From NCBI GenBank assembly GCA_030867685.1, contig JAQOWU010000008.1, positions 248,001 to 312,000 of the forward strand: a stretch of DNA of 64,000 nucleotides, written 5' to 3'. The notes under the pieces were generated by a model, which saw only the letters and a program-made list of their open reading frames with translations, did not search any database and was not told where the DNA came from. Each line of letters starts with the position of its first letter. The first letter of the stretch is position 1. The position numbers and the translations under genes are program-made. Source of the stretch: Wickerhamiella versatilis. Its lineage: Eukaryota. Shown piece by piece: positions 36,435 to 38,374 of the stretch.

Positions 36435-37220
36435 ATGTCGAAATGCGACTGTGATCGGGTAGAAAAGCTTGTGGCAAACTCTACTACCAGAGATAATTCC
36501 CGAGTGAAGCCTGATGAAAATTCCGTCATATATCAAACTTCTCTGATGAGTTCTTTGCTTGCGGGTGTCTATAGAAGTGAAAGAACACTAGGAGATGTTT
36601 TCACTCACGGAGAGTTTGGGCTCGGAACCTTCGATGATCTGGATGGAGAGATGATCGCATTTGACGGTGAAGCGCATCAAATATTCTCGGATGGATCTGC
36701 CAGAGTAGTTTCTTACGATCAACATACGCCTTTCGCGGTTGTAACCAAGTTTAATCCCTCTATGACACTAGAAGTTTCCTTTGATGAACCAAGAAGTCTT
36801 GAGGATATCATTGATAGACTTGCCCCATCGCAGAATCACTTTTGCTCTATTCGGTTAGACGGAAATTTTGAGCTAGTACGTACTCGTACTGTACATCGAC
36901 AAACTCCCCCGTTCAAACCCTTGGTACTGGCTGTTTCTGAGCAGAAATATTTCGATTTTCGGGATGTTTCAGGAACTCTTATTGGTTTTAGATCCCCACC
37001 ATATACGCAAGGGGTTAATGTAGCTGGTTACCATGTCCATTTCATAACCGAGCAACGCGATGGAGGGGGTCATGTCCTCGAATATCGTATAAAACATGGC
37101 AAGCTGCAGCTAGGGCTTGTTTCAAAGTTGCTGATCGACCTTCCCCATAACAATGAATTTGATACCGCCAATTTGAACCCAGCTGACCTGGATGAGTCTA
37201 TTAGGAAAACCGAAGCATAA
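36435..37220 (+). CDS. alsD: Alpha-acetolactate decarboxylase
   Basis: IYQTSLMSSLLAGVY, HGEFGLGTFDDLDGEMI, TPFAV, TRTV, NVAGYHVHFI...GGGHVL (Zn-binding His triad). First ATG at 36435. Confidence 0.95.
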   Translation: MSKCDCDRVEKLVANSTTRDNSRVKPDENSVIYQTSLMSSLLAGVYRSERTLGDVFTHGEFGLGTFDDLDGEMIAFDGEAHQIFSDGSARVVSYDQHTPFAVVTKFNPSMTLEVSFDEPRSLEDIIDRLAPSQNHFCSIRLDGNFELVRTRTVHRQTPPFKPLVLAVSEQKYFDFRDVSGTLIGFRSPPYTQGVNVAGYHVHFITEQRDGGGHVLEYRIKHGKLQLGLVSKLLIDLPHNNEFDTANLNPADLDESIRKTEA

Positions 37221-37357
37221 TTGACCATATAGTTCCTATTAGTATCAACTAAACATAGACTCGTCGACTACATAATAATCACGACCAGCTGGAGGATTAT
37301 TACTTGTACATGAAGGTCTTCCGAATTCCACATTAGTCATCATCCTTTCCTCTGCAG

Positions 37358-38374
37358 ATGAGGCTGGATAAGTTTGAACGCTATCCATTAACCTTTGGAA
37401 CAACGCCGATTCAATTCCTTCCACGTTTAAGCGAAGCTCTGGGAAATGATTTACAAATATACGCAAAAAGAGAGGATTGTAACTCGGGATTGGCCTTTGG
37501 TGGCAACAAACTAAGAAAACTTGAGTATATTGTTAACGATATATTGGCCTCAGGCGCCGATACGCTTGTATCAATAGGTGCTGTTCAGTCTAATCATACT
37601 CGTCAGGTTGCAGCAGTAGCTGCAAAGCTCGGCTTGAGATGCGTCAATATTCAAGAAAAGTGGGTTCCTCCTTGCGACTCTGTATATGATCGTGTTGGAA
37701 ATATTTTATTGACAAAGCTAATGGGTGGAGAACCACAACTCTTTGATGAAGGATTTGACATTGGAATCCGTGAAAGCTGGAAGAATACTATCAAGTCTAT
37801 TGAGGAATCAGGAGGCAAGCCCTATCCTATACCCGCAGGTGCGTCGGTACATAAATTTGGGGGAATCGGATACACTGCTTTCGCGCAAGAAGTAGCTGAG
37901 CAAGAGAAAGAATTAGGTTTCCAGTTCGATTATATTTTGGTCTGTGTGGTGACTGGTTCTACACTCGGAGGAATGATTGTTGGTTTTGCAGACCAAGGGA
38001 GAGCGGATCGAGTGATCGGTATTGATGCTTCAAATGTCGTTGACAAGACTAGGGCTCAGGTTCGAAAAATTGTTGATCACACGGCTGAGCTTGTCAACTT
38101 AGGAAGGCATGTTCGCGAAGATGAGATTATTATAATCCCAGATTACGCTTATCCGGCATATGGAATTCCTTCGGATGCTACAAGTGAAGCCATTCGCCTG
38201 GCTGCTCGCACTGAAGCCATGATTACTGATCCTGTGTATGAAGGTAAGTCAATGCAAGGGCTCATTGATTTGTCCAGAAAAGGATATTTTCCCAAAGGCT
38301 CAAGGATACTTTATGTTCATCTTGGAGGGGGACCTGCGCTAGATGGCTACAGCTATTACTATCGTGATGGCTAA
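37358..38374 (+). CDS. acdS: 1-aminocyclopropane-1-carboxylate (ACC) deaminase
   Basis: 338 aa; [30 protein letters not shown] (PLP Lys), [15 protein letters not shown] and HLGG carry the Glu and Leu residues diagnostic of true AcdS. Confidence 0.96.

Follow-up and report, generated by a model that had tools for sequence, protein, structure and literature searches.

The alsD-acdS locus at the rDNA edge

The window, a stretch of 64,000 nucleotides from Wickerhamiella versatilis, carries two genes in tandem, alsD and acdS, immediately before the rDNA. The features of this region are arranged as follows:

34863..36113, plus strand: upstream neighbour ORF, 416 aa, positionally equivalent to 05496, listed as 'cellulase family protein' in the published table for W. 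versatilis
36414..36434, plus strand: alsD 5' UTR of ~21 nt, with a start at 36414 and more read starts at 36417
36435..37220, plus strand: alsD, 261 aa, predicted alpha-acetolactate decarboxylase, intact and intron-free (ORF list, profile matches, no joints in RNA reads)
37221..37357, plus strand: alsD-acdS spacer, 137 bp
37332..37339, plus strand: acdS transcription start cluster (starts at 37332, 37335 and 37339), giving a 5' UTR of 19-26 nt
37358..38374, plus strand: acdS, 338 aa, predicted 1-aminocyclopropane-1-carboxylate (ACC) deaminase, intact and intron-free (ORF list, NCBIfam, structure alignment)
38375..38425, plus strand: acdS 3' UTR, with transcript ends at ~38408 and ~38425
38577..45881, minus strand: first rDNA unit (LSU, 5.8S and SSU, without 5S), its transcription directed at acdS
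45882..53187, minus strand: second rDNA unit, a copy of the first at 100% identity

The first-pass annotation had described the two genes as intact, co-oriented, 137 bp apart and about 200 bp from the rDNA, and this description stands on the ORF coordinates, with 202 bp between the acdS stop and the start of the first rDNA unit (38577). This unit comprises, on the minus strand, the LSU (39486-42754), 5.8S (42853-43002) and SSU (43127-44921) genes; the repeat period is 7305 bp, the second unit lying 7305 bp beyond the first. Because the units do not differ from each other (100% identity) and 100 N (53188-53287) directly follow the second, the array is collapsed in the assembly, with the right flank joined by scaffolding only. 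Yeast genes and the eukaryotic rDNA are contiguous with alsD and acdS, and the GC content at third codon positions (0.37 and 0.345 for the pair) compares with 0.33-0.47 in neighbouring genes. The 416-aa ORF upstream found no match in a Pfam search and is weakly expressed (RNA depth 0.6-8.3).

Transcription was analyzed by comparing with the window the raw reads of four RNA runs that carry the same species label (X6, X9, X10 and X11). Both genes are expressed in all four, and no joints (introns) were found in the reads over them. Upstream of alsD, loose ends resembling the template-switch oligo precede 36414 in five reads each of X10 and X11, and reads starting at 36417 number 10 in X9 and 12 in X10; the start site is an A after a pyrimidine and has no GGG upstream. 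Upstream of acdS, such oligo-like ends were counted in the poly(A) runs at 37332, 37335 and 37339 (8, 5 and 14 in X9; 10, 6 and 18 in X10; 12, 6 and 10 in X11), each of these starts again being an A after a pyrimidine. Since each gene shows its own tagged, capped 5' end 19-26 nt before the ATG, the pair is not a bicistron, and the bicistronic transcript initially considered finds no support. The 137-bp spacer must accommodate the 3' end of alsD as well as the promoter of acdS. RNA depth drops to 1.6-5.2 in the bin 37164-37267, a dip confounded by strain divergence and leaving room for minor read-through. Downstream of acdS, molecule ends in X6 fall at 38408 (6) and 38425 (14), and depth is at most 2.3 past 38412. 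An apparent transcript end at 37148, inside alsD, was discarded as an artefact, the genomic CCCCAT at this position matching the end of the library oligo.

The same gene order is found, reversed, over eight consecutive genes of the published W. versatilis table (PMC13376923, 2026), a match made by annotation and order. In the available supplement of that study, genes 05494-05501 are AcdS, AlsD, cellulase, TetR-like, MFS, an unnamed gene, an acyltransferase and mdaB, and both 05494 (AcdS) and 05495 (AlsD) are already labelled as transferred (HGT); the main text, in the version available, contains 'acetolactate' and 'aminocyclopropane' 0 times each, and mentions neither the pair nor its adjacency. 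In two media, its table gives 144-151 and 87-105 TPM for AcdS and 77-83 and 51-63 TPM for AlsD, i.e., a drop of about one third in the second medium for both, with the AcdS/AlsD ratio passing from 1.85 to 1.64; these 50-150 TPM contrast with mostly <15 TPM in the neighbours, including 4-14 TPM for the cellulase gene 05496. According to the study, as accessed, foreign genes lie in AT-rich end domains and chromosome 1 has an rDNA cluster at its left end, and by the same match in annotation and order the alsD-acdS region falls within such a foreign-gene-rich chromosome-end domain beside the rDNA. Our literature searches retrieved no paper on a horizontally transferred ACC deaminase in Saccharomycotina, nothing relevant by title or abstract among the matches listed for a transferred acetolactate decarboxylase in yeast, no title or abstract dealing with this yeast for 'versatilis' with aminocyclopropane, and none on yeasts among the matches listed for acdS transfer in fungi and oomycetes.

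Predicted enzymes and their bacterial donors

AlsD matches PF03306 (E 4e-77), passes the NCBIfam equivalog TIGR01252 (256 bits versus a cut-off of 180.65, over residues 31-260 of 261) and matches the solved structure 5yho over its full length (266 bits). H200, H202, H213, E72, R151 and E260 are invariant in an alignment of 18 sequences; from structure work on the Brevibacillus enzyme, we take the three histidines to bind zinc, and E72, R151 and the C-terminal E260 to be catalytic. The equivalog match and these conserved residues identify the product, at the level of prediction, as an alpha-acetolactate decarboxylase (EC 4.1.1.5). The window also holds three SDR genes, which were considered as BudC and ruled out: as all three score under the BudC/acetoin reductase cut-offs, no butanediol dehydrogenase can be claimed near alsD.

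AcdS passes the NCBIfam equivalog TIGR01274 (511 bits versus a cut-off of 392), and K51 (the PLP lysine), S78, Y294, E295 and L322 are invariant in an alignment of 12 sequences. The pair E295/L322 tells true ACC deaminases from D-cysteine desulfhydrases (DcyD); it is present, and the DcyD models score below their cut-offs (212-243 bits versus 429-610), related models also remaining below theirs. By equivalog match and diagnostic residues, the product is predicted to be an ACC deaminase (EC 3.5.99.7). Bit scores amount to ~600 against Alphaproteobacteria (75-78% identity), 464 against 1rqx and only 401 against 1f2d, which we take to be an ACC deaminase from a yeast. Being much nearer to Alphaproteobacteria, the AcdS of the window appears to have been acquired separately from the 1f2d lineage.

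Separate gene trees point to two sources. The yeast AcdS clade (100/100) lies within a 9-row clade (98/97) that includes Gluconobacter frateurii and Acetobacter syzygii, i.e., AcdS groups with the Acetobacteraceae at 75-78% identity, in agreement with the alphaproteobacterial affinity suggested at first pass, where the motif ASVHKFGG, indeed present in the translation, had been pointed out. The yeast AlsD clade (SH-aLRT 99) lies within a 13-row clade (99) of Frateuria, Carnimonas, Cobetia/Halomonas and Cernens. Its sister group, at 57-59% identity, is formed by the gammaproteobacterial Halomonadaceae and Frateuria, whereas Enterobacteriaceae (47-52%) fall in a different clade and the AlsD of Acetobacteraceae (only 43-47%) in yet another. 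The initial view of AlsD as similar to enterobacterial BudA was therefore right as to a gammaproteobacterial affinity, but not as to the family, and the proposal that the pair came from two bacterial donors is borne out by these trees. We conclude from sequence comparison that alsD and acdS are of bacterial descent and from different donors.

The published table proposes another origin for one of the two: in the portion consulted of Supplementary Data 6 of PMC13376923, 05495 (AlsD) and the neighbouring 05496 (cellulase) are both labelled 'HGT Pezizomycotina', and AlsD could have come from this group, perhaps together with the cellulase-like gene. Yet the HGT classifier, according to the Methods of that study as available, used trees from fungal proteomes only. 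Many of the best 120 AlsD clusters are unnamed, and those with a name are all bacterial; none of 10 representatives looked up from 150 at 50% identity is fungal (those named being bacterial or archaeal), the ESM Atlas returned bacterial AlsD clusters and no fungal ones, and the yeast AlsD is nested in Proteobacteria (SH-aLRT 99 and 96) in a tree into which no fungal AlsD-like sequence was placed. We hence regard an origin from Pezizomycotina as very improbable; our tree does not support this label, which deserves a recheck against bacterial sequences.

That the best matches of both genes are bacterial could also betray contamination or an assembly chimera, but the probability of this is negligible given their contiguity with eukaryotic rDNA and yeast genes, the host-like GC at third codon positions, their coverage by poly(A) RNA reads that bear this species label and show cap-type 5' ends, the occurrence of both genes in several independent contig sets and their place in the published annotation (PMC13376923, available supplement).

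Adjacency in bacteria and in related yeasts

The first-pass annotation had proposed searching for alsD-acdS neighbours in other genomes, and none emerged from any of the bacterial samples examined. A true acdS was found within 10 kb on either side of alsD in 0 of 80 loci, and alsD occurred in 0 of 80 acdS loci from metagenomes, where the best identity to the AcdS of the window was 77% and no contig of the yeast lineage turned up. Among the 401 genomes of the first class sample, 18 have acdS, two of which have alsD, always on other contigs, and among the 401 genomes of the second, six have acdS and none of these alsD; the adjacency thus occurs in 0 of 24 acdS-bearing bacterial genomes. A DcyD-like gene, 38-43% identical, is carried by two of the 80 bacterial alsD loci.

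These counts bear on how the pair arrived. Both genes could have been transferred jointly, as one block out of the same bacterium, as they are adjacent and co-oriented and as the Acetobacteraceae, as a family, possess both gene families. However, the two trees indicate different classes, the Acetobacteraceae AlsD forms a clade of its own at 43-47% identity, Halomonas sp. H2, whose AlsD is the nearest one with a name among the genomes searched, lacks AcdS, and the adjacency was seen in no sample, which makes a single block highly improbable. A horizontally transferred bacterial operon was rejected, given the lack of donor-type adjacency, the two donor lineages and the separate 5' ends.

In yeasts, relatives of AlsD and AcdS show equal longest-contig sizes in three pairs (48355, 23778 and 20849 bp). 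The last concerns P0002 (AlsD, 64% identity) and P0122 (AcdS, 86%), each found on two contigs with a longest one of 20849 bp, so that alsD and acdS appear to share one contig in this related lineage, as inferred solely from the equal sizes; by the same reasoning, the two conspecific contig sets, with sizes of 48355 and 23778 bp, apparently also carry both genes. Because P0002 and P0122 seem to share a contig, the linkage would have outlived considerable divergence, and a selected pair would show likewise. For a third lineage of yeast-type AcdS (P0123/P0264), no matching AlsD was found among the 120 listed matches, on contigs that are short (up to 6699 bp). Compared with the window, the alleles on the equal-sized contigs have 20 differing residues out of 261 in AlsD, leaving the catalytic set named above untouched, and only 2 out of 338 in AcdS; among the listed variants, AlsD has 12 changed codons versus 8 silent ones. 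AcdS is thus tightly constrained, and AlsD is fast-evolving and loosely constrained.

Proposed roles and comparison with known systems

We consider it likely that alsD and acdS were acquired from bacteria in separate events and have become ordinary yeast genes, with promoters of their own and different donors, brought side by side by way of the chromosome-end domain. AcdS stems from an alphaproteobacterium near the acetic acid bacteria, and AlsD from a gammaproteobacterium near Halomonadaceae or Frateuria. Each gene now has a promoter to itself and a capped 5' end ~20 nt before the ATG, lacks introns and is host-like in base composition; the two were not transferred together and are not transcribed as one unit. 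Their adjacency is most likely explained by the rDNA-flanking arm belonging to a chromosome-end domain that gathers foreign genes. AcdS would convert ACC to ammonia and 2-oxobutyrate, and might so allow nitrogen to be scavenged from plant material, and AlsD would convert alpha-acetolactate directly to acetoin, bypassing diacetyl. With an acetolactate synthase that was transferred on its own (02881, 'HGT Bacteria', 98-317 TPM in the accessible table of PMC13376923), AlsD could form a cytosolic branch toward acetoin and 2,3-butanediol. In all this, we infer the substrates and cell compartment of AlsD and AcdS, as well as the reason for the adjacency of their genes.

Alternatively, the two genes might constitute a functional module kept by selection. 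The 2-oxobutyrate from AcdS would be condensed with pyruvate to alpha-acetohydroxybutyrate, by acetohydroxyacid synthase or by the transferred acetolactate synthase, and decarboxylated by AlsD to 3-hydroxy-2-pentanone, so that a toxic keto acid would be disposed of and 2,3-pentanedione avoided while the ammonia is kept. AlsD enzymes accept acetohydroxybutyrate as a substrate, and such a module is, as a prediction, chemically plausible. According to the available texts, acetolactate synthase is able to form acetohydroxybutyrate from pyruvate and 2-ketobutyrate (PMC5489476), and yeasts leak acetohydroxybutyrate, which becomes 2,3-pentanedione (PMC5916228). The 137-bp adjacency, the apparent co-location in the 64%/86% identical lineage and in the two conspecific contig sets, the parallel expression in two media and the good expression of both genes within a generally quiet region all fit this reading. 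Against it stand the different donors and the absence of the pair from all bacteria examined, the separate transcripts, the unequal constraint (20 versus 2 residue differences, with changed codons outnumbering silent ones in AlsD) and, more weakly on account of the short contigs, the AcdS lineage without a matching AlsD among the 120 listed matches. Moreover, AlsD has a direct pathway partner elsewhere in 02881 (PMC13376923, table as available), and a role in the acetoin/butanediol route with this synthase seems more likely than one in an ACC-2-oxobutyrate module, which we judge rather unlikely. The stronger version, a linked unit assembled after transfer from two unrelated bacteria, which would draw nitrogen from ACC, the precursor of a plant hormone, turn the toxic 2-oxobutyrate into a neutral volatile ketone and be maintained in linkage by selection, is to our mind quite unlikely. 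Were the coupling true, these yeasts would be able to build new pathway clusters out of foreign parts, and would offer a natural route to low vicinal diketones, relevant to food fermentations; were the linked unit true, it would be a eukaryotic gene cluster formed after transfer and not an inherited operon.

On the reading that we prefer, two separate acquisitions, the locus is a further well-documented instance of the massive influx of bacterial genes known from Wickerhamiella/Starmerella yeasts. Two donors have contributed one gene each, and the genes now lie 137 bp apart, either of them equipped with a very compact yeast promoter. It shares with other transferred genes of this clade (PMC13376923, as available) that bacterial genes have become expressed yeast genes in an HGT-rich lineage and, here, in a chromosome-end domain. 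Unlike the siderophore operon of the same clade (bioRxiv 10.1101/399394 and PMC11043216, accessible portions), alsD and acdS are not a transferred operon, having two donors and not being adjacent in the bacteria examined. Compared to bacterial AlsD/BudA/ALDC enzymes (TIGR01252; 5yho, 6j92, 6inb), the yeast AlsD has the same length, N-terminus, metal-binding histidines and catalytic glutamate and arginine residues, but its gene lacks the usual partners budB/alsS and budC alongside, is driven by a yeast promoter, carries a short 5' UTR, and has diverged fast, with just 64% identity to the nearest yeast relative. Similarly, AcdS is an equivalog-level match to the bacterial enzymes (TIGR01274, 1rqx), with all five diagnostic residues and an end-to-end alignment with 1rqx, but without an acdR-type regulator alongside. 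A further parallel is brewer's yeast engineered with a bacterial ALDC (PMC5916228, available text), likewise a yeast with a bacterial enzyme that turns acetolactate into acetoin without diacetyl, whereas in W. versatilis the acquisition of alsD is natural and old, and its composition fully host-like.

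The alsD-acdS pair at the rDNA edge

Both open reading frames lie on the plus strand, 137 bp apart and at exactly the positions where the first-pass annotation had located them, and its observation of an alpha-acetolactate decarboxylase gene (alsD) paired with a 1-aminocyclopropane-1-carboxylate (ACC) deaminase gene (acdS) is right:

36435-37220, plus strand, alsD, ORF of 261 aa
37358-38374, plus strand, acdS, ORF of 338 aa
38577-53287, minus strand, rDNA repeats and gap: two 7305-bp units, 100% identical, then 100 N

Pfam assigns the alsD product to AAL_decarboxy (E 4e-77), and against the acetolactate decarboxylase equivalog of NCBIfam it scores 256 bits, where the cut-off is 180.65. 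The acdS product reaches 511 bits against TIGR01274, the equivalog for ACC deaminase (cut-off 392), and stays under the cut-off of D-cysteine desulfhydrase and every related model. AlsD H200, H202, H213, E72, R151 and E260 are invariant in an 18-sequence alignment, as are AcdS K51, S78, Y294, E295 and L322 in one of 12 sequences (numbering of the window proteins); their functional roles are presumably those listed in the structural literature. Solved bacterial enzymes align with each protein over its full length, and since neither protein is extended at the N-terminus compared with its aligned bacterial homologues, a cytosolic location of both would be the simplest inference.

Two rDNA units of eukaryotic type, with no 5S gene in them, are identified by Rfam on the minus strand, the first repeat beginning at 38577, 202 bp past the acdS stop. 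As the units are identical and followed by 100 N, the array is collapsed in the assembly; the left edge alone represents a genuine junction, and the Rpn13, glycogen phosphorylase and aspartyl protease genes to its right are joined by scaffolding only.

Donors of the two genes

The best 120 AcdS clusters show 75-99% identity throughout, and the 17 named lineages in the tree built from them comprise 16 Alphaproteobacteria and one Woeseiaceae MAG. AcdS scores about 600 bits against Alphaproteobacteria, versus 464 bits against the solved bacterial enzyme 1rqx and 401 bits against 1f2d. In the careful AcdS tree, whose root is set by six sequences (54-73% identity) of the other proteobacterial class sample, the window protein and the yeast-type clusters P0121, P0122 and P0123 form a clade (support 100/100) that nests, alongside Gluconobacter frateurii and Acetobacter syzygii, in a clade of nine rows (98/97).

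The closest named relatives of AlsD are those of Carnimonas nigrificans (59%), Frateuria aurantia (59%), Cobetia/Halomonas (58%) and Cernens ardua (57%); identity to Enterobacterales and Paraburkholderia is 47-54%. A quick-search tree of 125 rows, supported by SH-aLRT only and holding no fungal AlsD-like protein, unites the window protein with the yeast-type clusters P0001 and P0002 (99) as sister to Halomonadaceae plus Frateuria inside a 13-row clade (99), itself within a 53-row proteobacterial clade (96) outside which the Acetobacteraceae AlsD falls. The earlier proposal of two donors, an enterobacterial-like one for AlsD and an alphaproteobacterial one for AcdS, is thus right in substance, as the two trees point to different donors, but its AlsD donor has to be replaced by the Halomonadaceae/Frateuria sister group. 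Third-position GC (0.37 for alsD, 0.345 for acdS) resembles that of the neighbours (0.33-0.47), so the transfers are not recent; alsD and acdS, bacterial by descent, are genuine yeast genes and are expressed.

Assembly, transcription and constraint of the pair

The search for alsD-acdS adjacency in bacteria returned none across all samples of loci, metagenomes and genomes. True acdS was absent from all 80 alsD loci with 10-kb flanks (two held a DcyD-like relative of 38-43% identity, about 5.7 kb off), and alsD from all 80 metagenomic acdS loci (median locus 6.3 kb). One class sample had acdS in 18 of 401 genomes, two of them with alsD on separate contigs; the other had it in 6 of 401, none with alsD. 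The genome bearing the closest named AlsD lacks AcdS. We regard assembly of the pair on the yeast side as demonstrated.

Among the relatives of AlsD and AcdS, equal-sized longest contigs recur three times (48355, 23778 and 20849 bp), which suggests that a single contig carries both genes in conspecific strains as well as in one lineage further removed; for a third yeast-type AcdS lineage (P0123/P0264), whose contigs are short, the matches listed include no matching AlsD. Alleles of both genes from sets whose longest contig measures 48355 bp depart from the window proteins at 20 of 261 AlsD residues but only 2 of 338 AcdS residues, and the nearest other lineage is 64% (AlsD) and 86% (AcdS) identical. 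The 24 alsD variants listed from the RNA reads include 12 residue-changing and 8 silent codons, with 62 further differences over the whole 35500-38600 stretch beyond those listed. By these comparisons AcdS is strongly constrained and AlsD loosely, although no AlsD catalytic residue varies; the two do not evolve as a unit.

Four RNA runs of the same species label, aligned to 35500-38600, are 95-99% like the window and therefore derive from another strain.

RNA depth per column
Upstream ORF: 0.6-8.3
alsD: about 9-81
Bin 37164-37267 (spacer): 1.6-5.2
acdS: about 11-162
Beyond 38412: at most 2.3

Reads over 35500-38600 contain no splice-type gaps, hence alsD and acdS have no introns. Loose ends resembling the template-switching oligo lie directly before 36414 (alsD) and, in all three poly(A) runs (X9, X10, X11), before 37332, 37335 and 37339 (acdS). 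All these starts are A after a pyrimidine, without GGG upstream, and so look like true capped 5' ends. A similar signal at 37148 was rejected as an artefact, the genome sequence there matching the oligo end. The bicistronic transcript envisaged earlier is not supported: each gene has its own start, 19-26 nt ahead of its ATG, and is transcribed separately, with about 115 bp shared between the alsD 3' end and the promoter of acdS. Since reads below 95% likeness were discarded, strain divergence may account for part of the low spacer depth, and minor read-through may occur.

The RNA-run strain shows 102 listed differences from the window in these 3.1 kb (35500-38600; ~3%), a large number for strains under a single species label and in keeping with the rapid evolution that has been reported for these chromosome-end domains. 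Past 38425, three reads each in X10 and X11 continue in a sequence that does not match the window, so the other strain may differ just downstream of acdS, near the rDNA approach.

The published catalogue and the reading of the pair

A 2026 paper on transferred genes of W/S-clade yeasts (PMC13376923) tabulates W. versatilis JCM 5958; in the portion used here, consecutive genes 05494-05501 follow the window order reversed (matched by order and annotation, not sequence), and expression ratios agree with our read depths. On this match W. versatilis, or a yeast very near to it, is the probable source of the window.

Genes of W. versatilis JCM 5958 in PMC13376923 (TPM in both media unless split)
05494, ACC deaminase, HGT Bacteria, 144-151 (medium 1), 87-105 (medium 2)
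05495, acetolactate decarboxylase, HGT Pezizomycotina, 77-83 (medium 1), 51-63 (medium 2)
05496, cellulase family, HGT Pezizomycotina, 4-14
05497, RutR/TetR-type regulator, Native, 63-86
05498, MFS transporter, Native, 9.6-28
05499, unnamed gene, Native, 2.3-47
05500, acyltransferase, HGT Bacteria, 86-164
05501, mdaB, Native, 125-159

The label HGT Pezizomycotina for AlsD is contradicted by our tree and should probably be corrected, only probably because that tree holds no fungal AlsD-like protein; the classifier behind it, described as built on fungal proteomes only, may explain the label.

Elsewhere in the window, 31707-33810 carries an MFS transporter gene (minus; weak Tet-efflux-type matches) that diverges from the gene of a TetR-family regulator (plus; TetR_N E 4.5e-17), a typical bacterial arrangement in a yeast chromosome; the regulator is the gene tabulated as Native at 63-86 TPM (PMC13376923), and its best plasmid-borne relatives are only ~30% identical. 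ORF 6516-7313 (minus) encodes a domain of the class-A beta-lactamase type (Pfam Beta-lactamase2, E 7e-41); at 56 bits it falls well short of the 200 that NCBIfam sets for class A, and it is probably another bacterial-type gene. An aminotransferase at 22868-24007 (plus) matches the bacterial NCBIfam model PRK07324 (539 bits, cut-off 476), its next-ranking matches being capreomycidine/guanitoxin-type cyclodehydratases; with SDR, Dak, MFS and flavodoxin-like genes it looks like a run of transferred genes.

Listed apart from these genes in the paper's table is 02881, an acetolactate synthase with a bacterial origin (98-317 TPM), and a figure legend mentions a mosaic butane-2,3-diol pathway (PMC13376923). 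A 2-oxobutyrate module, in which acetolactate synthase would join AcdS-made 2-oxobutyrate and pyruvate into acetohydroxybutyrate for AlsD to convert to a volatile ketone, is chemically reasonable yet improbable as an account of the pair. The best reading, which we hold to be likely, is chance co-location and then retention of two individually useful enzymes.

In the portion used, PMC13376923 describes long AT-rich 'end' domains that gather transferred genes and puts an rDNA cluster on chromosome 1, at its left end; its main text there mentions neither 'acetolactate' nor 'aminocyclopropane'. As far as this source goes, the two genes have been catalogued before, and their region was known to gather foreign genes; new here are the AlsD donor assignment, the mapping of the starts, the difference in constraint and the pair as a yeast-side assembly.
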